DNA from: a virus
Reading direction: 5' to 3' (one strand)
IMG/VR virus record: IMGVR_UViG_3300032284_002843
Location: 1-64,000 of that record
Length of the DNA: 64,000 nucleotides
Part shown: one piece after another, positions 3,071-59,115 of the stretch
How positions within the stretch are numbered: position 1 is the first letter of the stretch
How the letters are laid out: the number at the start of each line of letters is the position of its first letter
Program-made: the position numbers and the translations under genes
Notes under the pieces: generated by a model
Seen by the model: the letters and a program-made list of their open reading frames with translations, nothing else
Told to the model about the DNA's origin: nothing
The model's database searches: none

Positions 3071-4462
3071 TTAGCTCAATGCAGGCTTGTTGCTGGCTTC
3101 TCGCACCTGATCAAACGTCCATTCCTGCATGATCTGTCCATTGCGGAAAACAACTCGAAGAGCATCTGCCCAGTCATACCCTGTATTTGCATGGACAGTT
3201 TCCCACTTACCATTTTCACGGATAAGAACCAACCGTCCCTTCTTGCTGCGCTTGCCTGTATCAGTAACAGGATCCTTGTAAACATCGCGCCATTCACCGT
3301 TAATGTACATAGCACTGCACTTCATAGCAAACTTTTGAGTATCACGGTTGACCATCTGCAACAGTCCACCGCCCATACCAAATGCAATGTTATCCGCACT
3401 CCATCCACGATCAAGAAGGTTAGTAAGGATAATCGGAAGGCTGTCAATGGTAATACCGTCTCCCTGGATTACACGGATGCAGCTAGGGAGAACCTTATAG
3501 CCCTTCTTGTTAACAGTGTAACCAAACTTCTCACCGAGACGTTCAATTACATCAACCGGAACTGTGTGAGGGTCTCCGCTGTCAGGACGAACAACTACAG
3601 TAGCACCGCTGTCAATAACAGCCTGTCGCAGCTCTTCACCCCAAATGTTGCTAGCTGCGTTCATAATGTCATAGCTATCGCTAACTACAGCAACCAGTGC
3701 ACCCGGACGGGCAAACTGCTTGAGCATATTTGCATATGCCTTGCTTTCATTTTCACGGCCCCAGCTAGTAATAGTGCTGTGCTCTGCAGCAGGAATACTA
3801 AAACCAGCCATGCCTGCACCGTAATAACGTCGAGCAGCCATTGCACCTGCAACAGTATCAGTACCCATGAAATTTACCAGGTGAGCAGCACCACCAATAG
3901 CAGCACTTTCATTGCTGCTAACACCGCGTGCACCAAAGTCATGCAACTTAAAGGGCAGCTGACCATCAACATCTTCCGAGCTCTCCTCAAGAGCAGAGCG
4001 AATAATCTGCTTGCAATGCCAGCTAAGGCTAGATACCGTAGTTGGATACCAAATAGCACGAAGCAAGCTGGTTTCAATAAAGGTAGTAAGCCAGAAGCAC
4101 TTGGGATCAGTATTCACAATAGTACACAGAACATTGTGAGTGGGGATTACAGTTCCCTCGGCTACGGCCTTAACTTCAACAGGAAGATAACCGTTATACT
4201 TGTTGAGGATGTATTCCCAACCATCCTTGTTGAACGGCTCGCCGTGTGCAGCCCAAAATTCAGCTGCCTCGTCAATCATAGCCTGCGTAATGGGCTTGCT
4301 CAGGTATTCCTTGAGAAACATCTGCAACCCAAAGAATACGGTGCGATCAAACTTGCCCCCGCGACTCTCAATATAGCTGTAAACATACTCGGTACCAGGC
4401 GGATACTGAAAGGCATGGCTAGCCTTGTACGAGTCCGTATTTAAAAGAAAGTTATCAAACAT
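3071..4462 (-). CDS. nadV: Nicotinamide phosphoribosyltransferase (NAMPT)
   Basis: TDSYKASH, LHDFGARG, PAAEHS, VSDSYD, VRPDSGDP, IQGDG motifs. Confidence 0.95.
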   Translation of the reverse strand: MFDNFLLNTDSYKASHAFQYPPGTEYVYSYIESRGGKFDRTVFFGLQMFLKEYLSKPITQAMIDEAAEFWAAHGEPFNKDGWEYILNKYNGYLPVEVKAVAEGTVIPTHNVLCTIVNTDPKCFWLTTFIETSLLRAIWYPTTVSSLSWHCKQIIRSALEESSEDVDGQLPFKLHDFGARGVSSNESAAIGGAAHLVNFMGTDTVAGAMAARRYYGAGMAGFSIPAAEHSTITSWGRENESKAYANMLKQFARPGALVAVVSDSYDIMNAASNIWGEELRQAVIDSGATVVVRPDSGDPHTVPVDVIERLGEKFGYTVNKKGYKVLPSCIRVIQGDGITIDSLPIILTNLLDRGWSADNIAFGMGGGLLQMVNRDTQKFAMKCSAMYINGEWRDVYKDPVTDTGKRSKKGRLVLIRENGKWETVHANTGYDWADALRVVFRNGQIMQEWTFDQVREASNKPALS

Positions 4463-4486
4463 TGCAAATCTCCTTTGCGGTTAAAA

Positions 4487-4509
4487 TAGAAAGGGTCTAT
4501 CCCAATCTA
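4487..4509 (-). promoter_or_regulatory. Leader hairpin with GGGAUAGACCC core upstream of nadV
   Basis: Same 11-mer also precedes nadM (6082-6092); lies between TTGACA promoter (4549-4554) and RBS. Confidence 0.6.
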
Positions 4510-4550
4510 AAATCTTTCTGTGAACTATACTAACACTTTACAAAATAATG

Positions 4551-5003
4551 TCAAGCATAATCCTCAAGTCTAGCTCGGATTTCAAGATAAAACTGATGAT
4601 ATTTGGTCATACGCTTAATGTCCTTTTCAGTAATACCTTTCAATCGCCTAATATCACTGTTATGACGCAGGTCACACAGCTTTACTTCCATAGCATCACG
4701 ATTGGCAAATACACGCTCCTTGTATTCGTCCAAGGTTTCACCAGGAATCTTTGTGAGTGATTTGATTCCGTCAATCACTCGCTCGCTGATTTCAGCATTT
4801 TTGAGATCTTGATAGGTAACGTCAGTATCTTCAATCACATCGTGGCCCAGAGCAATGCACTGAAGCTCCTCATCTGTGGTTTTAAGATAATGCATAACCT
4901 TCAATGGATGTAGAATATAAGGATTGCCGGCCTTATCATACTGTCCGGCATGAGCATTGGTTACTAAAACCAACATCTTTCCTAGCATTTCACCACGTTT
5001 CAT
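4551..5003 (-). CDS. HD-domain (p)ppGpp/(p)ppApp hydrolase-like protein (Mesh1/SpoT-HD family)
   Basis: AH.GQ.DK.G.PYI.HP, HDVIEDT, VKL.D..HN motifs; GGAGG RBS before ATG 5003. Confidence 0.85.
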   Translation of the reverse strand: MKRGEMLGKMLVLVTNAHAGQYDKAGNPYILHPLKVMHYLKTTDEELQCIALGHDVIEDTDVTYQDLKNAEISERVIDGIKSLTKIPGETLDEYKERVFANRDAMEVKLCDLRHNSDIRRLKGITEKDIKRMTKYHQFYLEIRARLEDYA

Positions 5004-6101: not shown

Positions 6102-6143
6102 GTGTATTTATACTACTAGTTAACTCATCTGTCAACTAAAAAT

Positions 6144-9100
6144 TTAAAGGCCGTAACGATCTTTATATAAGTTATAGTTAGACAAGATATCACTGTCATT
6201 TAATGCAGTATTATATACTGTAATTTGACCGATTGTACCATTCCAATATTCAGATCCGTTAGTTTGTCTGCCTATTTGTGCTGTGTTGGTTACTGTGTTC
6301 CAAGAAACAGTGTGGCTGGCAACATTAACACCGTTTAAGTACAGTGTAGCAGTTGATCCATCAAATACGCCAGCTATCTGGAACCAAGTGCCTGCTGTGA
6401 TTGTTCCGCCCGAGACATCATCTGCATATCCGGCCCAAATCGGTGTAGTTCCATTAATGCCTAATGATCGGCTTTGATGATTGTTTGCAGTACCATAGCT
6501 CAAAATCCATCTGAAACCACCAGCGTCGTATGTCTTAGCCCAGGCTATAATGGTGCAAGGATCTGTACCATTAGGTAAATCTTTATGATAAAGATCGCAC
6601 CAAGTATCAACTCCATTGAATTCTAAAATGCCATTGTTATCAAACAAAAAGTTTATATATCCATTGAAAAATGCGGGATTACGACTGGCACTTATATCAT
6701 ATATTGTTGATCCAATCCTTGGATAGCTTTGCACATTCCCTGTATCGTATGACAATACTAGATTAGGGTTAGAAATAATTTCATAAGGACCATTCCACAT
6801 TTCAACATTCAAGTAGCTACGTTCAAGTCTAACATCTGTAATGCCATCTGCTAGAGCTTGCGGATATTTTTCTGGTCTAACACTGCTCATTCTATCAAAT
6901 ATTTCTTGATAGTTTGCAGGCAAGGTACCTGCTGTGCCATTTGGCCAACCAGTAAACCATTTTGGTGGATTTCCATACCAGAATCTGCTAGCCATATAAT
7001 GGAAGTATGTAGATGGCATAGGCATACCTGTGTGTTGTTCCCATGCGCTGCCATTCCATAACCAAAAGGTCATGGTATCTAGAACAAAAAATCCATCACC
7101 AACAAGTGGAGCACCGGTATTATCACCAACTGGTCGTATTATCCATTCACTACCTGTCCAATGCCATCCTTTTCCTGCAGGAACTGCAGATTGGTAGCTG
7201 TTTGGCCAACCAGGCAATAGTTCTGCGCTGCCTATTGTGCCAACTTGTCCACCTCTGTCTATCCATTGTGCACCGTCCCATATCCAATTATGACCAGTAT
7301 CATAGGTATAATATGCATCTGCTATATCGCCATTATAACTATTTGGCCAGCCTGGCAAATCTGTATTGGTATTGACTTGACCTTTTGGTGCTATTGGTAT
7401 TCCATTAAATTTTGTCAGATAAAACCCGTGATCTATTGCCGCTGGACCATTGAAGGTTACGTAGCTAAACTGACTACTGTCCCCTATGATGTTTGCAACT
7501 CCGCCAACAGGGGCCGATATTACAGCTTGGCCTTTAACATTATCAAACTTTACCACACTATAAGCATAACCCTGTGTACTGGTTATGCCGGGCCGACTAC
7601 TTTCATAGTTGAAAAAAGTACTTTGTACAGCGTTGTTACCTTTAATAGTCCATAAGGCAATATTAGGCGTACCGTTTGACTCATGCCATATGTCTCTGAG
7701 ATACGTTTGACTGCCACTTTGCATCTCAATCTCTGGGTAACGTTGTGGATCTACGCCGCCGGGTGCATCATGTCCTGTGCCTGCTCCATCTATTAGTACA
7801 AAACCGTCGCCGGCACTTTGCCAGTTAGAACTCACACAATAATCATCATATCCGCCTACACCGGGAACCAGATCATTTTGCAAACAGTGTACGTTGCTGG
7901 TGAATGTTTTTAGAACACCGCTACCATTATCATTTACAAGACGTGCGCCCGGTTGATCACTATTATCGACAATAACGTGTCTACCGGGGGTTAAATCTTT
8001 TCCTTGAGTAAAGCCCATCCAGTAGAACTTTACTTTACTTGGTCCGCGTAATAACCAAACTGGCCAACTTAACCCAGACCAGTTATAATAACTTTGATAT
8101 TTTGCCCAACCGCTTCTATAACCTTGTCCCTGTATAGCTATTTCTACATTAGCAGGTATTTCAATTGGATTTGTGACAACAACTTCACCGGTAGCGTATC
8201 GCATACCATATATTACAGGCCAGCTGCCAGGATTTGCCTGTGCATATGCCACCGCAACATTGATTTGATCTTGCACAGTGCCTTTATTCCATCCCGGAGC
8301 ATCTGGATAGATGTAAAATATCTGTCTTGACCTCTTTGGTATTTGAGCGGTTAGCGGTGGTAATGTATCATCTATAGTTTGATTAATTATAGTATCTAGC
8401 ACAACCTGTATAAGCCTTGGATCAAATGCCCAGACATCTTCGTAACTAACGTTGAACTTGTTATTATAAGCACTGAATGCTCCACTAATCAGTCGTGTGT
8501 CGCTGCTTACTTCGTTGGTTCTATATCCATAGTTATAGTCCTGTGGAATAAAGTAGAGTTCTTTATAGATTGGTCCACTGGCATCGGGTCGCATGCAAAA
8601 CTCATTATTTGCAAACCATATGCTTACTCTACGTGATCCGCCACCTCCACCAAACTGGCTGATCTGATTTATACAATCAGTTACCACAGGGTAGATTATT
8701 CTATTATCTGTAACACTGAGATATGCAGTATCACTTATCATAAATCTAAAACTGTTAATACTGACGTTTCTTCTAACACCGATATTTTGTCCGTGTACTC
8801 CATAGACGTCACATTCTTTACTAGCATTAAAAACACTATCATATACAGATAGCTGTCCTACACCATTGCTCCAATATTGTGTATGAGGATAAAAGTTACT
8901 GTAGCCATCTTCAAGCTGTATGCCAACACCCTTGCCGCAAGATTCAAAATAACAATTACGTATAAAGTAATCATATGCTTCAGCTGCATATGTTGTGACA
9001 CCATAATTGCTGCAGCGATAGAATCTGCAGCGTTGAATGCTTATTTCACTATCAGTACCTACACCCGGGACGTAATCAGTATTAGCAATACCACATCCCA

Positions 9101-32388: not shown

Positions 32389-32956
32389 CTATACAATGTC
32401 AGCTACAGTAGCAGATTCTGTATTGTTGTCAAGTGGATATTTGACTTGTTTATCTCGTATTCTTTTAACCAACTCATCATGCTCTATTGGCGTATAATCT
32501 ATCTGCTCAACAGATACATTGAAATATTTTCCATGTTCAATTTCCAATGCATGAATATGTCCATGTACATTAGCCAATGCCCAATGAGGTACACTGTCAA
32601 TATGAACAGGAATATGAGTCAGCCACAATTTATCAACCTTCATACTTCCATGTATGCGATTAAAGTATTTCAAATAATCATTGTGATCAAAAATATCATG
32701 ATTGCCCATGATGAGACGCTTATCGCCATTCAATCTACCAAGTGTTGATAGAAAACGTCTGTTGATAACAACATCACCAAGATGATAAACCTTATCATCT
32801 GGACGTACAACATTGTTCCAACGTTGTACCATAATTTCGTCTACCTCTGCTGCACAGCTAAATGGTCTTAGAGGACTGCCATCTGGTCTCTTAAAAACCG
32901 TGCAGCACTTATCATGACCGAAAGTGTGTATCACTAACGTAGAAAATATTTCTCAT
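32389..32956 (-). CDS. Calcineurin-like metallophosphoesterase; requires +1 frameshift near codon 12
   Basis: AGGAGG RBS, MRNIFYVSDTHF then +1 frame GH...HLGD...GNHD...HIP...HGHIH; length 3n+1. Confidence 0.8.
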
Positions 32957-33782
32957 AGTGATGCCTCCTTTCTGTTATAAACTTTACACATATATCTTGT
33001 TCTATCCATTCTTTATTATAATTAAGTATTTTATCAAACAAATCAATGATTATTTTGATCTTTTTTTCTTGAGTTAGCTTACGATCTGTATAACCTTTCT
33101 GTATATTATTCCTATTTGAAATAAATTGTAGATTTGCCGGATGACGTAAAATTTCAGGTATAACATTAAACTCGTATCCAACTAATCGTGGTACAATATG
33201 ATCTCTAACATATCCATGTCTGTTTTTAAAAGAAAAAAATCCATAGCTATTAAGGCTAGTTATTTCTTCTTCTGTAAAAAAATCAACCATTGAGCCAATC
33301 CAGTTTGATCGAGTATGATATATTTCATATTCCGATTTCTCATTTATAGGAATCCAATATCCTAAATCTTCCATCTTTTGTCTAAATTTTATTTTATATT
33401 CATCTGTCCATTTATCTTTTGATTTTTGCCCAATAATTTTCTTTAACTCATGTGAATGAGGATGAGAATAACTTTCTTTCGTTCTATTTTTATGCATTTT
33501 TTCGACAACATCTTTAGGTAGCTGTTTCCCTCTATTTGCAGACCCAGATTTGTAACGATATTCATCATTAACAGTTGCTTTGACTAGAAAACTTTGTTTA
33601 GCTTTTTGTTCATCATTCCATTTATTGGCAAAGTTAGGATTATTTGAACCTACAAAATTTATAGAATGGGCGACACCCTTACATTTCCTAGAACAATACT
33701 TTGGCGGGCTAACGCCAATTTTGTTTGACCTATAAGTTGTTTTTTCTATGCCACAGATAGAACAAATATATGTTATTTTCAT
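32934..33782 (-). mobile_element. HNH-type homing endonuclease (same family as 22677-23231)
   Basis: C..C...KYCSRKC; GSNNPNF; VRDHIVP...IPEILRHPANLQ...N..KG. Confidence 0.7.
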
Positions 33783-33789
33783 AGAGATA

Positions 33790-33813
33790 CCTCCTAGATA
33801 TTTACCTAGGAGG
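33790..33813 (-). promoter_or_regulatory. RBS-sequestering hairpin with late promoter TAAATA in loop
   Basis: cctcctag-atatttac-ctaggagg; AGGAGG is in the stem. Confidence 0.75.
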
Positions 33814-33843
33814 CATGTTCAAAATGGGTATCAGTTATAAAAA

Positions 33844-34026
33844 TTATGCAGCGTCGCCGTTTTTCTTAGCCTGTATCTCAGCTCTACGTGCCTTACTTAG
33901 CTTACCAAGTGCTCCTAGTGCCTTTCTGGCTCTGCTAGCAGCGGCCTTGACGCCTTTTTCTTCAAACTTAGCATGTTCTTCTAAATAAGCATTAAATTGA
34001 GCAACGATTTCTTCATGTGTACTCAT
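33844..34026 (-). CDS. Small basic histone-like (Hc1-type) protein
   Basis: KFEEKGVKAAASRARKAL...RAEIQ; AAGGAG RBS. Confidence 0.7.
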   Translation of the reverse strand: MSTHEEIVAQFNAYLEEHAKFEEKGVKAAASRARKALGALGKLSKARRAEIQAKKNGDAA

Positions 34027-34027
34027 A

Positions 34028-34174
34028 TTATTCTCCTTTAAATTCTTTCTTAAACTTTTCAATTATCGCTTGTGCCTCAGTTGGACTTAAATTTCCAACA
34101 TCTATGTACCAAACCTTACGTTCAGGGATAACATCAGTTGTTTGGTTATCCAAATTAATATTTTGATCAGTCAT
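34028..34174 (-). CDS. 48-aa mini-protein resembling a T4 gp20 portal segment (not in ORF track)
   Basis: MTDQNINLDNQTTDVIPERKVWYIDVGNLSPTEAQAIIEKFKKEFKGE; GGGGG RBS; TTGCAT-N17-TAGAAT promoter (34193-34221). Confidence 0.65.
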   Translation of the reverse strand: MTDQNINLDNQTTDVIPERKVWYIDVGNLSPTEAQAIIEKFKKEFKGE

Positions 34175-34223
34175 GTTTACCCCCAGTTTTATATTCTAAT
34201 AATCATTTAGAAAAAATGCAATT

Positions 34224-34715
34224 TTATTGCTGATTCTTAATTTGAGCTATTTGAGCTATTTGAGCTTGGCCTCTAGTCCAGGCCGCAATACCTAAAATAA
34301 ATCCAAATGCGATATGTATAAATCCATTTTCTTTTAATGTAATAGGATTCCAATATTGTTCTTTGGTTAAGATTTGAAGTGCCATTACTTGATCTTTTTC
34401 TGGCATTTTTCTCGCAAGCTCAATGGCTTCAACTGGTTTTACAGTGGTCTTTTCAACCCATACTGGCATAACAATGAAATCAAATATGCATATTGCCATA
34501 TAAACAAATGCCATAGCTGGACGCCAATATTGTTTCATCCAACCTTCTTCTTGTTGGTCAATACCGCTGTCTACAATCTTTTTATCTATACCTGCCTGTG
34601 CTAATCCAACTTGCGCTTGTGCTTGTGCTGCAGCAGGATTTTGTGTGGCAACTATTACCTGAGGTCCATTATTCAAATTGACCTGTGTATCTATAGGTTC
34701 GTTATTTTCTGGCAT
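34224..34715 (-). CDS. Putative holin (3TM-holin-like)
   Basis: WRPAMAFVYM.IC.FDF..P and HIAFG.ILG..AW TM segments; follows spanins. Confidence 0.6.
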   Translation of the reverse strand: MPENNEPIDTQVNLNNGPQVIVATQNPAAAQAQAQVGLAQAGIDKKIVDSGIDQQEEGWMKQYWRPAMAFVYMAICIFDFIVMPVWVEKTTVKPVEAIELARKMPEKDQVMALQILTKEQYWNPITLKENGFIHIAFGFILGIAAWTRGQAQIAQIAQIKNQQ

Positions 34716-34750
34716 GTGTCATTACCTAATATATTAGTATTTAATGACAC
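34716..34750 (-). promoter_or_regulatory. Hairpin over holin translation start with embedded late promoter
   Basis: gtgtcatta (34716-24) / taatgacac (34742-50); tattta 34738-43. Confidence 0.55.
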
Positions 34751-34772
34751 CGTGGATTTTTAAAAGTGTGTT

Positions 34773-35105
34773 TTAATTCTTGGTAATATTTTTGTAATAA
34801 ACAATAATTGCCTTTTGCTGTTCTATGTATCTCTTTAAATCAGCAAAATCAATCATTAATGCTTGATAATCCTCTGGACTAATAGCGATAATTGTAAATC
34901 GTCCATTGTTATTTTTACCTAATTCAGCAATAATTTGATTTACATTCTGTTCATTAATGATTTTCCAAGCAGGTGTAGCCATTTTTACAGGAGCAGGATC
35001 TGCTGGCTGAGACCAATTAACGTTAACAGGTTTTGTCTCTACATCTAGGGTTTCGGCACAGGCTGCAAGTAATAATAGGCTACCTAGACAAAATAATTTT
35101 TTCAT
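34773..35105 (-). CDS. Putative o-spanin (lipoprotein)
   Basis: Lipobox LLLAAC; overlaps upstream i-spanin. Confidence 0.7.
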   Translation of the reverse strand: MKKLFCLGSLLLLAACAETLDVETKPVNVNWSQPADPAPVKMATPAWKIINEQNVNQIIAELGKNNNGRFTIIAISPEDYQALMIDFADLKRYIEQQKAIIVYYKNITKN

Positions 35106-35509
35106 TTTTTTGCCTTATCTTGATCTGGTTGTGTTGCAGATTCAATACCACCAAATATAGCCTGAGTATCTTGTTGCATTTGTTGTTCTGTGGCTTGAAT
35201 ATTTTGACTGGCTTGAACAGGAATATTTGTTTTCATTATATTCCTAACCGTGTTTGTATAACTGCTATTAGATGCATTTTGTCTAAGCTGCAAGTCTAAT
35301 ATTGCAGCATTTTGCTTAACCGCTGCTTCTTGTAAGCCAGCAATGGTTTCTTTTTGTATTTTAACAGCATCTTCCAGTTTGGCATTGTTCTGTTCCAAAA
35401 CTTTTATTTGATTTTGGCTCCAATCCCAATAGAAATAGCCTGCTATACCTAATAGCGCAATTACAATACCTAAAGCTAAAATTATTTTAGATTCAATGGA
35501 TGAAAACAT
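35102..35509 (-). CDS. Putative i-spanin
   Basis: N-terminal TM followed by coiled coil. Confidence 0.7.
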   Translation of the reverse strand: MFSSIESKIILALGIVIALLGIAGYFYWDWSQNQIKVLEQNNAKLEDAVKIQKETIAGLQEAAVKQNAAILDLQLRQNASNSSYTNTVRNIMKTNIPVQASQNIQATEQQMQQDTQAIFGGIESATQPDQDKAKK

Positions 35510-35522
35510 ACACTATTTAGTA

Positions 35523-35780
35523 TTAATTATCATCATTTTTTACCAATTTTAGCATGGCCTGATAACATTCATATTGTGTAGCTACGGCTGGATTTTCTGC
35601 TCTAATCTTGGCTTCTGCTTCCATTTGTGTTTTATACTTTCTTACCCAATCAATAGCAGAGACGATATCGTTGTTAACAGTAATGTTCACCCGCGTTTTG
35701 TCGTAATCATTACTGGTGTGAATATAAAACCAATCATGCGGATACACATCTACTATTGTTCTGTTCACAAATTCAACCAT
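35523..35780 (-). CDS. Hypothetical protein
   Basis: GGAGG RBS before MVEFVN. Confidence 0.6.
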   Translation of the reverse strand: MVEFVNRTIVDVYPHDWFYIHTSNDYDKTRVNITVNNDIVSAIDWVRKYKTQMEAEAKIRAENPAVATQYECYQAMLKLVKNDDN

Positions 35781-36021
35781 TGGACCTCCATATTGATAAT
35801 TTATCTGCTTGTTCTTTTGTCTTAATACTATAAAAACTTTCGGCATAAGCAAGATTCAACAATACCATATGATCAGTATTATATATTTCGCAAATATGTC
35901 CAATAGATCCTGGTCCGTATGTCGAACGAAGAAACGGACTGTGTCTAATCTTATGCTGTTTGATAAAAATTCTTATGTCATTCAAATTTGAATGTATAAA
36001 AATTACATGTTTAGTCTTCAT
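35773..36021 (-). CDS. Hypothetical protein
   Basis: Start re-placed at MKTKH, overlapping upstream stop. Confidence 0.5.
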   Translation of the reverse strand: MKTKHVIFIHSNLNDIRIFIKQHKIRHSPFLRSTYGPGSIGHICEIYNTDHMVLLNLAYAESFYSIKTKEQADKLSIWRSNG

Positions 36022-36661
36022 CTGTCCAGTCACTTTCATCTGCCTCCTCGATATGTTCGTCACCGTCACCTATATAATCATTCTTACCAGTAAACCAGCC
36101 AATCAGGGGTTTCAAAGCTGATTTAGCCTTAGCCAACATCTGCTGTTCCTTTTCATCATACCATTTATAATAATCTTCATTGCTTTGCAATATCCTGTAT
36201 TCATTATGATACGAAAAGCTTAACAGTGCTGCATCTTCTTTAGTAAAAATATCACATATATAGAACTCTGTGCCACACCCACCTGTTATCTTTCGAATCT
36301 TGCTATAACGCATACTTTGCTGGTCCATGTACTGTTTCATAGATGCTAAGTTTCCATGAATCAACAACCTAGCATAAGGCCCTTCAGATTTTTTTAGCCG
36401 TTCCCTATCCTCCTTGGTCAACGGCCGCAGCTCTGCTTCATTGTCGTCATTGATTGTAAGCAAACAATGTTTAAATTTGATGCTACCTTTGGTGTGGGGA
36501 TTATCACTTGTTTCTTTGGTACTCCACGGAATATTGGCATCAAGATGATTAATGTAAAAAGATTTTCCATTTGCCTTAATCGTCCACATAGGAATACTCG
36601 GATCCTCTAGGTGTTTCTTGTTAAAGTGGAAAACTGCTGTATCACATGCTAATTCAACCAT
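36011..36661 (-). CDS. Hypothetical protein, first gene downstream of the putative amber attenuator
   Basis: AAGGAG RBS; 216 aa. Confidence 0.75.
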   Translation of the reverse strand: MVELACDTAVFHFNKKHLEDPSIPMWTIKANGKSFYINHLDANIPWSTKETSDNPHTKGSIKFKHCLLTINDDNEAELRPLTKEDRERLKKSEGPYARLLIHGNLASMKQYMDQQSMRYSKIRKITGGCGTEFYICDIFTKEDAALLSFSYHNEYRILQSNEDYYKWYDEKEQQMLAKAKSALKPLIGWFTGKNDYIGDGDEHIEEADESDWTDED

Positions 36662-36678
36662 TTGTTTCTCCTTTCATG

Positions 36679-36777
36679 TTAAAAATGGCCAACAAAAAAC
36701 CTGCAAGGCGAATAGCCGTGCAGGTTCATCAAAATCAAACTAAAATAAATTAAAACCTAGTGCTCTTTTAACATCAT
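36679..36777 (-). promoter_or_regulatory. Leader mini-ORF with in-frame UAG (codon 7) whose readthrough spans a terminator
   Basis: ATG ATG TTA AAA GAG CAC TAG GTT...CAT TTT TAA; TAAATA 5 nt upstream (36783-88). Confidence 0.6.
36692..36726 (-). terminator. Intrinsic terminator within the leader ORF
   Basis: AACCTGCA-cGGC-tattc-GCCt-TGCAGGTT followed by TTTTGTT. Confidence 0.8.
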
Positions 36778-36791
36778 AATCCTATTTAGTT

Positions 36792-36865
36792 TGGTGCTTC
36801 GTGTGAGATTTGAACTCACCTTCGCAGTTTTAGAGACTGCTGGTCCGCCACTGACCCAACGAAGC
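36792..36865 (-). tRNA. Amber suppressor tRNA (anticodon CUA)
   Basis: GCTTCGT/ACGAAGC acceptor, A73-CCA; D stem GGTC/GACC; GCAGT-CT CTA AA-ACTGC; GTGAG-TTCAAAT-CTCAC. Confidence 0.9.
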
Positions 36866-56397: not shown

Positions 56398-59115
56398 ATG
56401 TATATTGATGCGTTTTTAGAAAGAGAAAAGAACACAATTTTAGTTGTTGAAAGAGATAAGAATGGCAAAAGAGCATTCAACAACTTTTCCACAAAATATG
56501 TTGTATATTGGCCAAGTCCCAGAGGCAAATATCCAAATATCTACGGTGAACTTTGTGAAAAATTTCAAACATCAAAAATAAAAGAGTTTCAACGTGAGGT
56601 AAATGTATTACCTAAGGTAAAACTACATGAAAGTGACATAAATCCAATTTTCCGTTGTCTATATGACAACTATAAAGGACTACCTGTTCCCAATTTGCAT
56701 GTGGCGTTCTTTGATATTGAAACTGACTTTGATCCGGCACGCGGCTTTTCAACACCCGATGACGCATTTAATCCTATCACAGCCATTTCGGTATATCTGA
56801 ATTGGCTTGATAGAAATTTTACATTGGTTATTAAACCAAAAGGCATGAGTGTAGAAGACGCACAAGCAATATGTGAAAAATTTGAAGATACTGTGCTTTG
56901 CAGTGACGAAAAAGAATTATTAGATATGTTCTTACGTCTCATTGAGGATGCAGACATAATGAGCGGGTGGAATTCAGAAGGGTTCGATATACCTTATATC
57001 CATAATCGTATCGTACAAATCCTAGGTAAAGAAGAAACTAGACGTCTATGTCTTTGGGGTAAGTTCCCTAAAAAACGTGAATATGAGGCATACGGAAGAT
57101 TAACTACAACTTACGATACAGTCGGAAGAATTCATCTAGACTATTTGCAACTTTATAGAAAGAATACATACCACGAAATGCATAGTTATAGACTTGATTT
57201 CGTAGGAGAATATGAAGTTGGTGAAAAGAAGGTTCCATATGAAGGCAGTCTAGATAGATTGTACAACAACGATTTTGCTAAATTCATTGAATATAATAGA
57301 CAAGACGTTATGCTGCTTGTTAAGATTGACAGAAAGAATAAATTCATTGAACTAGCTAACAATCTAGCACATGAAAACTGTGTGTTGCTGCAAACTACCA
57401 TGGGCGCAGTGGCTCTTATTGACCAAGCGATTGTAAACGAAGCACACGATCTGGGATTTGTTGTACCAAACAGACAACGAACCGATGATAACCGCGATGA
57501 TGAAGAAAATAAACATTCAAACAGCGTTGTTGGTGCTTATGTGGCAGATCCCAAAGAAGGTGTGCATAAATGGATAGGTGGCGTTGATATTAACAGTCTA
57601 TATCCAAGTTGTATTCGTGCACTCAACATGAGTCCAGAAACAGTAGTTGGACATATTCGTCCAGAGCATACTGAAAAGCTTATAGAAAAACGCATCAAGC
57701 TTGAAAAGAAAAGCTTTGCAGATGCATGGAATGCACAGTTCGGAACACTAGAATATTCGCAGGTAATGAATCAAGACATAACTCCTGTGACTATAGATTT
57801 TGAAGATGGTTCAGTCGTTACTGTAAGTGCCAGTGATGTTTATGATCTAGTCTTTAAATCTGGCAAGCCTTACATACTAAGTGCCAACGGTACTATCTTT
57901 ACTATGGAAAGAGATGGTATTATTCCACATTTGTTGTCCAGATGGTATGCTGAACGTAAGCAACTTCAAGCCGAAATGAAGAAATACAATGAACTTGCAG
58001 AAAATGCTCAAACAGAAGATGAAAAGAAAGAATATAAAAAGCAAGCTGCATTCTATGATCAAAGGCAGTTGATTAAAAAGATTCTTCTAAACAGCTTGTA
58101 CGGCGCCGTTGGTAATCCAGGAAGCAGATTCTTTGATCCACGTATTGCACAAAGCGTAACATTAAGCGGGCGCTGCATCGTCAAGCACATGCAAAGCAAG
58201 ATTAATGAAATTATAACAGGTGATTATAATCATCTTGGATTAGCTAATATATACGGCGATACAGACTCTGGTTATTTCTCGGCATATCCAGTAATGAAAG
58301 ATCAACCAGAGTTTTCTAATTTTGAGTGGACTAAAGAGAATGTTGTAGAGCTGTATGATCAAATAGGTAACCTAACTAATCAAAGCTTTCCTGAATTTAT
58401 GAGATCTGCATTTAATTGTCCAGAAAAGAATGGAGCTATTATTAGAGCAGCCAGAGAATTATGTGCATCAAGTGGGTTATTCATCACTAAGAAAAGGTAC
58501 GGCGTTCTTATCTATGACAAGGAAGGCAAGCGCAAAGACACCAATGGTAAAGCTGGTGAAATTAAGGCTATGGGTCTTGATCTCAAGAGATCAGATACTC
58601 CTAAAGTAGTGCAGGACTTTTTGAGTGAATTGCTAGTAGACGTATTAACGGAAAAGTCTGAAGATGAAATACAAAACAAAATCAAAGCATTTCGTAAAGA
58701 GTTCAGATCATGGCCAAGTTGGATTAAAGGATCACCAAAACGTGCTAATAAAATCACACATTTTGAAGGTTTAATGTCATCCACTCCGTCTGCTACTGTC
58801 CCAGGACATGTTAGAGCTAGTATTAACTGGAATAGTCTCAAAAAGATTTATAACGATCACTATTCTATGCCTATACAAGATGGATTTAAGGTAATTGTTT
58901 GCAAACTAAGACCTAATCCAACTGGCCTAACAAGTGTTGCTTATCCAGTTGATGAGCTTAATCTTCCAACATGGTTTAAAGAATTACCCTTTGATGACGA
59001 TGCTATGGAAGAAGCACTTATAGATAAAAAGGTCGGAAATCTACTTGGTGTGCTCAAGTGGGATCTTGACAAGAACAAAGATAACAACAGTTTTGATGAT
59101 TTATTCAAATTTTAG
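56398..59115 (+). CDS. Family B DNA polymerase
   Basis: FDIETD, GWNSEGFDIPY exonuclease motifs; DINSLYPS, KILLNSLYG, YGDTDS, KKRY. Confidence 0.97.
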   Translation: MYIDAFLEREKNTILVVERDKNGKRAFNNFSTKYVVYWPSPRGKYPNIYGELCEKFQTSKIKEFQREVNVLPKVKLHESDINPIFRCLYDNYKGLPVPNLHVAFFDIETDFDPARGFSTPDDAFNPITAISVYLNWLDRNFTLVIKPKGMSVEDAQAICEKFEDTVLCSDEKELLDMFLRLIEDADIMSGWNSEGFDIPYIHNRIVQILGKEETRRLCLWGKFPKKREYEAYGRLTTTYDTVGRIHLDYLQLYRKNTYHEMHSYRLDFVGEYEVGEKKVPYEGSLDRLYNNDFAKFIEYNRQDVMLLVKIDRKNKFIELANNLAHENCVLLQTTMGAVALIDQAIVNEAHDLGFVVPNRQRTDDNRDDEENKHSNSVVGAYVADPKEGVHKWIGGVDINSLYPSCIRALNMSPETVVGHIRPEHTEKLIEKRIKLEKKSFADAWNAQFGTLEYSQVMNQDITPVTIDFEDGSVVTVSASDVYDLVFKSGKPYILSANGTIFTMERDGIIPHLLSRWYAERKQLQAEMKKYNELAENAQTEDEKKEYKKQAAFYDQRQLIKKILLNSLYGAVGNPGSRFFDPRIAQSVTLSGRCIVKHMQSKINEIITGDYNHLGLANIYGDTDSGYFSAYPVMKDQPEFSNFEWTKENVVELYDQIGNLTNQSFPEFMRSAFNCPEKNGAIIRAARELCASSGLFITKKRYGVLIYDKEGKRKDTNGKAGEIKAMGLDLKRSDTPKVVQDFLSELLVDVLTEKSEDEIQNKIKAFRKEFRSWPSWIKGSPKRANKITHFEGLMSSTPSATVPGHVRASINWNSLKKIYNDHYSMPIQDGFKVIVCKLRPNPTGLTSVAYPVDELNLPTWFKELPFDDDAMEEALIDKKVGNLLGVLKWDLDKNKDNNSFDDLFKF

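Follow-up and report, generated by a model that had tools for sequence, protein, structure and literature searches.

Few surfaces of tailed phages are as conserved and as exposed as the clip of the portal protein, at which packaging motor and neck dock and which is known to trigger bacterial immunity. In phage T4, the clip domain comprises residues 279-358 of the portal protein gp20, lies outside the capsid and attaches the terminase gp17 and later the neck. According to the T4 portal structure paper (PMC4493910), N291, M292, R295 and K296 at the clip tip are the proposed gp17 contacts, their mutation, including the change R295A-K296A, abolishes packaging, and a 24-residue peptide covering gp20 288-311 was reported to bind gp17 and to inhibit packaging. 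Defence proteins read the same surface. SpbK, a TIR NADase of Bacillus, is activated by docking on portal clip domains (PMC12847820); it is escaped by a mutation in the clip helix and must cluster on the 12 clips of the portal ring (PMC12847820 / bioRxiv 10.1101/2025.11.14.688446). The STAND protein Avs4 senses portal monomers (PMC12847820 / bioRxiv 10.1101/2025.11.14.688446), the footprint of EcAvs4 being larger and including stem, clip and wing (PMC12847820). Here we describe an open reading frame (ORF) of 48 codons, hereafter mini-ORF, at 34028..34174 on the minus strand of a 64,000-nucleotide (nt) stretch of viral DNA (the window; positions 1 to 64,000 of the IMG/VR record IMGVR_UViG_3300032284_002843). 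Its product of 48 amino acids (aa), the mini-protein, is probably a soluble copy of the strand, exposed tip and helix of the portal clip. Our literature searches found no paper on a stand-alone portal-clip gene.

A gene for a portal clip segment

The mini-ORF begins with the ATG at 34174-34172 and ends with the TAA at 34030-34028, one nucleotide ahead of the start codon (ATG 34026) of a gene for an Hc1 (histone H1)-like protein. On its other side, a leader of 49 nt (34175..34223, minus strand; read directly from the sequence) separates its start from the stop codon of a holin-like gene (34224-34715). GGGGG (34184-34180), 5 nt upstream of the start, is the likely ribosome-binding site. Removal of the mini-ORF would open a gap of 195 nt in a genome that is 93% coding. 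Scored by codon usage, the frame reached a log2-odds of +24.5, as compared to -13.8 to -92.3 for the other five frames; 48-codon windows of real genes, which served as the yardstick, had a median of 15.2 and a 95th percentile of 24.0. In-frame codon usage, tight packing, the ribosome-binding site and a homolog of 48 aa (P0003, see below) together identify the mini-ORF as a genuine gene, the product of which is presumably translated. The unannotated ORF with ribosome-binding site made out in a preliminary description of the window is thus present on the minus strand, including the peptide quoted there.

The preliminary description had further taken the product for a stand-alone mimic of the portal segment PERR.FYIDVGN, which is borne out by profile matches. 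Residues 17-46 correspond to positions 204-233 of 433 in the Pfam family Portal_T4 (PF07230; E 1.3e-6), with 27.9 bits against a curated cut-off of 22.9, and PHROG 213, annotated "portal protein", matches with E 3.8e-6. A six-frame search of the record gave the mini-ORF 23.6 bits against PF07230. By tblastn, 326 of the 50,697 phage records searched were matched, and among the matches listed (40 rows of the 326 records) the same motif appeared throughout, in genes mostly annotated as portal. Overall, the likeness to portals is far beyond chance. The T4 gp20 string, quoted in the preliminary description, was retrieved by phmmer against PDB sequences: residues 16-34 align without gaps to gp20 279-297 (6uzc_E), the E-values being weak (0.08-0.12) because the match is so short. 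The alignment starts at gp20 residue 279, which is the first residue of the clip domain. From this alignment and the definition of the T4 clip, the copied segment (residues 17-46) covers the opening strand of the clip together with its tip and helix; the 16 residues ahead of it have no portal similarity. The order of these elements is as in the T4 gp20 clip (PF07230; PDB 3JA7, 6UZC), with the helix of the mini-protein predicted at residues 31-46.

The mini-protein spans about 30 of the 433 profile positions, as compared to the roughly 500-870 aa of a full portal architecture. It is a fragment-sized portal homolog and cannot be a portal, since wing, stem, crown and the second and third clip strands are all missing. 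In the AlphaFold2 model of the mini-protein (5-row alignment, predicted local distance difference test (pLDDT) 68), residues 31-46 form a helix, residues 21-30 are extended and unpaired, and residues 1-20 are of low confidence; a search of the ESM Atlas gave no usable match. The mini-protein cannot form a three-stranded clip sheet of its own. If the ungapped alignment is extended, its last 24 residues (25-48) face gp20 288-311. Two of the four gp17-contact positions are kept (N and L at N291/M292), and T-E stands in place of R295-K296, with a charge reversal at the last position; K occupies the second position of this pair in 38 of 64 portal segments, where the mini-protein has E.

The source record is a 136,279-base fragment (about 32% complete) of a T4-superfamily jumbo phage, an uncultured lake phage. 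Apart from the mini-ORF match, no portal and no Terminase_6N terminase was found on the 136-kilobase (kb) fragment. Its nearest complete relative is G001 (452,799 bases; DNA polymerase 79% identical), which encodes a Terminase_6N terminase and has a single PF07230 match, a full T4-type portal; the full portals of relatives occupy open frames of 574 and, in G001, 596 aa. The clip of the G001 portal, PERRVFYIDTGSLSGPRAQAVVERMKNE, is similar to the mini-protein not in the strand alone but also along the helix, and an origin of the mini-ORF from the portal of its own phage lineage is compatible with this likeness. At the R295-K296 equivalents the G001 portal has P-R. A difference from T4-type portal genes also lies in the surroundings, since the mini-ORF neighbours lysis genes and a histone-like gene and not a head module.

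Strain variation and other clip-only proteins

For the comparison of strains we used population contigs from four runs (X2-X5) of a second study over positions 33700-34900. One lineage, represented by contigs of X2 (3205 nt), X3 (318 nt) and X5 (2183 nt), skips the 195 nt between 34018 and 34214 and has 53 other letters in their place; the strain-variable segment (34019..34213) thus consists of the mini-ORF and its leader. This lineage retains the flanking holin-like and Hc1-like genes, with differences at 52-54 of 645 nt plus 11 gap letters in the former and at 19 of 144 nt in the latter. Other contigs of the same runs (X2, X4, X5) cover 33870-34442 in overlapping pieces (33870-34109, 33996-34120, 34084-34366 and 34153-34442) at about 84-86% DNA identity, which means that a more distant lineage keeps the mini-ORF region. 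Being absent from one lineage while its region is kept in another, the mini-ORF is an accessory, strain-variable insert. Among the 40 best-supported population differences listed, none lies inside 34028-34174.

Near-identical DNA was not found in the phage collection, and of 93 pattern matches for the mini-protein in viral contigs none was confirmed. A word-based search of proteins of 26-84 aa retrieved nothing but the mini-protein, which is encoded on two contigs; the longer one measures 303,307 bases. An exhaustive phmmer search of 1.84 billion representatives yielded six proteins at E<=1e-3. Two of these, P0002 (2529 aa) and P0004 (797 aa), were discounted as low-complexity repeat proteins, leaving four credible small homologs. 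P0003 is the only close relative of the mini-protein among the clip-only proteins: it has the same length and 73% identity, with residues 16-25 (IPERKVWYID) unchanged, so that the mini-ORF is kept as a 48-aa gene in one other sequence. P0007 has 66 aa, whereas P0006 (103 aa) and P0005 (201 aa) contain two modules each. Three of the four score above the Portal_T4 cut-off, in the same stretch of the profile; P0003 remains below it, with 17.0 bits.

A profile of the five proteins matched 34 proteins of 26-352 aa, some of them clip-only and encoded on contigs of 48-464 kb. For many of the 34, the contig is shorter than 3 kb and the gene may be a portal gene that was cut off; 17 were examined individually for grouping. 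P0019, P0027 and probably P0035 were set aside as truncated real portals, and P0015, whose residues 1-48 align with portals in 806 records, was not counted as firm, as it may be the remnant of a decayed portal. We found two types of clip-only proteins, introduced here as type A and type B. Type A proteins consist of strand, tip and helix only, like the mini-protein (P0003, P0007 and P0018, as well as the tandem doubles P0005, P0009 and P0012), and in all 11 type A modules listed conservation is highest in the strand (F/W)Y(I/V)DVG. Type B proteins (P0008, P0011, P0013, P0014, P0016, P0017, P0021 and P0025, plus those of locus L116 and of LR756511.1) have two further clip strands added and the long portal loop removed, those from the profile search being 76-115 aa long; VFYIDVGQLPP, a K and an A are invariant in 11 of 11 rows, at an overall identity to the first row of 39-56%.

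With the mini-protein these clip-only proteins share the same module at PF07230 positions 199-236, the small size and the location on phage contigs. Unlike it, several carry two copies or basic tails (P0005, L200), and type B proteins fold as a compact beta-alpha-beta-beta unit in the model. For P0017 (pLDDT 77.5), a strand, two helices and two strands were predicted to pack together. The best matches of the type B model were thioredoxin-like folds (Foldseek E 0.037; VIA-align Z 5.0 among 48,161 chains); no portal was found among the matches of either program, an absence that is uninformative for so small a domain.

Two type B genes were seen in their context. The L116 record, about 10% complete, contains no portal; a 239-aa ORF (6123-6842, plus strand) lying 0.8 kb past its type B gene seemingly ends in a second, degenerate clip-like segment, and the gene preceding the type B gene (3819-4724) is capsid-like by eye. 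The 595-kb uncultured phage LR756511.1 has three clip-like segments, one of which is the portal itself. The type B domain of its 247-aa ORF (L090, 5848-6591) carries a tip, DVGQLPPYKAEAF, that is identical to that of its own portal in 13 of 13 residues, while the flanks differ; its 86-aa ORF (L093, 1495-1755, minus strand) ends in a type A module. Both small ORFs start, as judged by eye, with RR-hydrophobic, twin-arginine- or signal-like segments, which would place the portal-clip copy outside the cytoplasm.

The borders of this segment in portals are also sites at which mobile elements insert. In five portals (L101, L103, L104, L122 and L123; frames of 1113-1278 aa) an intein, with HN followed by T/S, lies directly before RAPERR, and in two others (L137 and L166; 1008 and 954 aa) a Cys-started insert, an intein, follows the clip helix or loop. 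The metagenome loci L176, L195, L194, L225 and L226 have a similar intein-like appearance. Cutting of this type may explain how clip fragments arise, without bearing on their retention for function.

Candidate partners of the mini-protein

We regard it as fairly likely that the mini-protein is a functional mimic of the clip toward some partner. Since the rest of the portal is missing and a clip sheet of its own is impossible, it would be a competitor, tying up a protein whose normal ligand is the exposed clip of the portal. The identity of this partner, and indeed any binding, are putative. The reading we place first, albeit tentatively, is that of an immune decoy: the favoured partner would be a host defence protein sensing the portal via its clip, of the SpbK or Avs4 kind, and the monovalent decoy would bind this sensor yet offer neither the scaffold nor the complete surface on which firing depends. 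SpbK and Avs4 are host proteins and hence possible targets, not relatives, of the mini-protein; what connects them with it is that they recognise the portal part it copies, or a surface including that part. The mini-protein would be made late, alongside the portal, as suggested by a late-type TAAATA box upstream of the operon (see below). T-E in place of R295-K296 would spare the phage's own packaging motor, as the basic pair in contact with the terminase is lost.

Four observations led us to rank the decoy first. The clip is the target of the sensors, and the copied strand, tip and helix belong to the clip, where SpbK docks; the preliminary description had named portals as triggers of immune sensors, and the clip is indeed a documented contact of portal-sensing defences. 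The mini-ORF shows the accessory behaviour of arms-race genes, being replaced by 53 nt in one lineage and absent from the syntenic site ahead of the Hc1-like gene of G001. Mimicry of a phage's own portal is seen in LR756511.1. Finally, the basic pair is lost. If a decoy, the mini-protein would stand for a new anti-defence principle, with a fragment of the phage's own structural protein as competitor. The clip-only design recurs in other large phages, and a still more tentative generalisation would be that large T4-type phages repeatedly evolve "self-epitope" mini-genes, i.e. soluble monovalent clip copies blinding immunity of the SpbK/Avs4 kind. If true, these would be the first natural decoys made from a fragment of a virion structural protein, with the 48-aa gene as a minimal example.

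Several points weigh against the decoy and its generalisation. Literature searches turned up no published case of a decoy made from a portal fragment. Since EcAvs4 reads a larger surface, its binding to a piece of 30 residues may be poor. Identity with the own portal rests on one genome, LR756511.1, and the export-like N-termini of its small ORFs fit neither a cytoplasmic decoy nor a terminase binder. The family is also very sparse: all five clusters looked up were singletons; among 80 viral-contig loci found with the type B profile, 79 had portal-sized frames and one, L116, a small one; and the type A profile led to 51 metagenome loci of which 47 were portals and one or two small genes. The four metagenome loci other than portals were L200, whose 206-aa frame combines a type A module with a tail rich in Lys and Pro, a cut frame of 54 aa, and two weak matches.

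A close second to the decoy, and in our view somewhat doubtful as well, is a binder of the packaging motor or neck: the mini-protein would be a natural counterpart of gp20 288-311, binding the large terminase or a neck protein that occupies the clip. Such a product would hold back the phage's own motor as long as proheads are not ready, or stop that of a T4-type phage infecting the same cell. It owes its rank to being the sole reading with an experimental precedent, namely the synthetic gp20 peptide cited in PMC4493910. In position, the last 24 residues of the mini-protein correspond to this peptide, with N and L as N291/M292 equivalents; unlike the peptide, it is a natural gene product with T-E at R295-K296, and terminase binding is only putative. 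The first two contact positions speak for the motor. The pair that follows speaks against it: the G001 portal has P-R where the mini-protein has T-E, and R295A-K296A abolishes packaging in T4. The invariance of VFYIDVGQLPP, K and A among the type B rows, the Terminase_6N terminase of G001 and the inferred late timing are all in line with a motor binder, whereas the fragment itself provides no terminase for comparison. A monovalent mimic would moreover have to compete with a 12-fold clip ring, inhibition of the own motor would be costly, and presence/absence in close relatives is unusual for an assembly regulator. If it does bind the terminase, nature would have supplied an inhibitor of packaging that might be put to use against T4-type phages when infections are mixed. 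In either case, a natural clip-only gene offers a probe of how terminase and neck read the clip and of how clip-sensing defences are evaded.

Somewhat less likely again, we consider, is a neutral leftover, a portal piece copied by illegitimate recombination or homing that is open by chance and functionless. The segment is an indel between close relatives, the ORF two genes further on has, by eye, an HNH-like motif, inteins flank the clip segment in portals (the five before RAPERR and the two after the clip helix), and the single close homolog, P0003, stays below the Pfam cut-off: all this would suit such a relic. A frame open by chance would not be expected to match the best real genes of the phage in codon usage, in this frame only, nor to have its own start, a ribosome-binding site and exact packing onto the next gene. 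In addition, the 48-aa length and the portal-like core are kept in P0003 at 73% identity, the region persists in a lineage about 84-86% identical in DNA, and clip-only genes arose repeatedly with an invariant tip.

Improbable, in our estimation, is a binder of portal subunits, by which the lone beta-strand would pair with the free beta-hairpin of an unassembled portal subunit, capping it and so poisoning the assembly of a competitor's ring, or shielding the surface until assembly. It would account for the fact that the mini-protein has the first strand and not the hairpin, that residues 21-30 are extended without an internal partner in the model, while the three-stranded type B proteins fold on themselves in theirs, and that (F/W)Y(I/V)DVG is the best-kept strand; yet this inference is purely structural and derives from a model of pLDDT 68, no precedent was found, and the own portal would be hampered as much as a foreign one. 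A small cytoplasmic regulator of the adjacent holin, with an irrelevant portal likeness, is very improbable: although the mini-ORF follows the holin-like gene after 49 nt, behind a spanin pair and probably on one transcript, Pfam and PHROGs gave no similarity to lysis regulators at E<=1, there is no hydrophobic segment in the 48 residues, a related lineage has the holin-like and Hc1-like genes without the mini-ORF, and the other clip-only genes with context (L116, LR756511.1) are not beside holins.

Gene neighbourhood and expression signals

The Hc1-like gene (33844..34026, minus strand; 60 aa; PF07432, E 9.1e-11) starts at ATG 34026, position 1 of PF07432 aligning to residue 13 of the longer, TTG-started ORF. 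Its ribosome-binding site, AAAGGAG, sits within the last codons of the mini-ORF. Hc1-like genes are common in phage contigs (276 confirmed relatives in IMG/VR). The Hc1-like neighbour led to 80 loci, and 85 loci were searched with the mini-protein. Eight matched at E<1e-3, in every case within an open frame of 439-580 aa; the distance to the Hc1-like gene was about 4.6-5.7 kb, and in none of the eight did a mini-ORF precede that gene. The type A clip proteins P0005 and L200 end in Lys/Pro/Ala-rich, H1-like tails. A clip module adjoining, or fused to, a DNA-binding tail may thus be a recurring pairing.

Upstream of the mini-ORF, the gene at 34224..34715 (minus strand) encodes a holin-like membrane protein of 163 aa (PHROG 3427 holin, E 0.043), whose score for PF11351 (GTA_holin_3TM) of 24.5 bits is marginally below the cut-off of 24.8; a search for it in viral contigs returned nothing. 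A 9-nt unit at 34240-34250, present in three tandem copies and encoding a repeated AQI at the C-terminus of this protein, is one copy shorter in related contigs. Further upstream, an o-spanin-like lipoprotein of 110 aa (34773-35105, minus strand; PHROG 812, Rz-like spanin, E 2.1e-15) and an i-spanin-like protein of 135 aa (35102-35509, minus strand; weak spanin PHROG matches) are encoded by ORFs that overlap by 4 nt (34773..35509). In Atu_ph07, the spanin pair is followed by DnaJ and Clp genes, with no annotated mini-ORF.

Downstream of the Hc1-like gene, a 282-aa ORF (32934..33782, minus strand; PHROG 23051 of unknown function, E 5.7e-8) is followed by a metallophosphoesterase-like ORF and a 484-aa sigma-70-like ORF. 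The 282-aa ORF has a Cys-rich N-terminal segment and a C-terminal HNH-like motif, both noted by eye; it matches no Pfam family at E<=1, and the HNH reading is confirmed by no profile. Possibly it is a free-standing homing endonuclease. G001 preserves the order Hc1-like gene, metallophosphoesterase and sigma factor, with another gene ahead of the Hc1-like one; the 282-aa ORF is absent from the syntenic place.

For the mini-ORF, the preliminary description had proposed a sigma70-like promoter and early expression. The letters are there, TTGCAT (34221-34216) and TAGAAT (34198-34193) with a spacer of 17 nt in the leader, but they agree with the consensus at 8 of 12 positions, which is no better than chance, and were not listed by the promoter scanner; nor were promoter-like sites enriched over 32800-36800 (15 found versus 17.8 +/- 4.1 in shuffles). 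Early expression therefore finds no support, and the block looks like a lysis or late one. A candidate late promoter, the TTAAATAC box at 34737..34744 (minus strand), is located 21 nt ahead of the ATG of the holin-like gene. On the whole record (G000), NTAAATAN occurs within 100 nt upstream of 42 of 166 ORFs, including tail-fibre genes, mostly 15-25 nt before the start, with a total of only 97 sites on both strands of the 136 kb; 8-mers such as ATAAATAT are 20-fold enriched upstream of ORFs. This distribution suggests a promoter class of the T4 late type, the boxes presumably being akin to the T4 late promoter TATAAATA. In the leader of the mini-ORF the exact TAAATA box is absent, with only CTAAATGA and ATATAAAA present, and no terminator was predicted between the holin-like gene and the mini-ORF. 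The holin-like gene is probably the first gene of the transcript carrying the mini-ORF; we infer that this gene, the mini-ORF and the Hc1-like gene are transcribed together and late, and consider this likelier for the mini-ORF than transcription from a sigma70 promoter.

An alternative genetic code was discarded for this phage: under table 11 the coding density is 93%, the stop codon of the mini-ORF is TAA, and the 165 ORFs considered end with TAA (113), TGA (29) or TAG (23). A shared C-terminal tag was absent among the 181 ORFs of the record. A tRNA with the anticodon CTA (36792-36865, minus strand), an amber suppressor that ARAGORN designates as tRNA-Pyl, occurs in this genome, which otherwise uses TAG as a stop. 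Compared with the jumbo phages Atu_ph07 and Phosso, the DNA polymerase has 46-48% identity; with the RaK2/GAP32 group the figure is about 43%. In the window its gene (56398-59115) is continuous, whereas in G001 (C1:294231-298566), as in G005, it is split into separate frames for residues 1-624 and 620-905 that lie about 1.5 kb apart.

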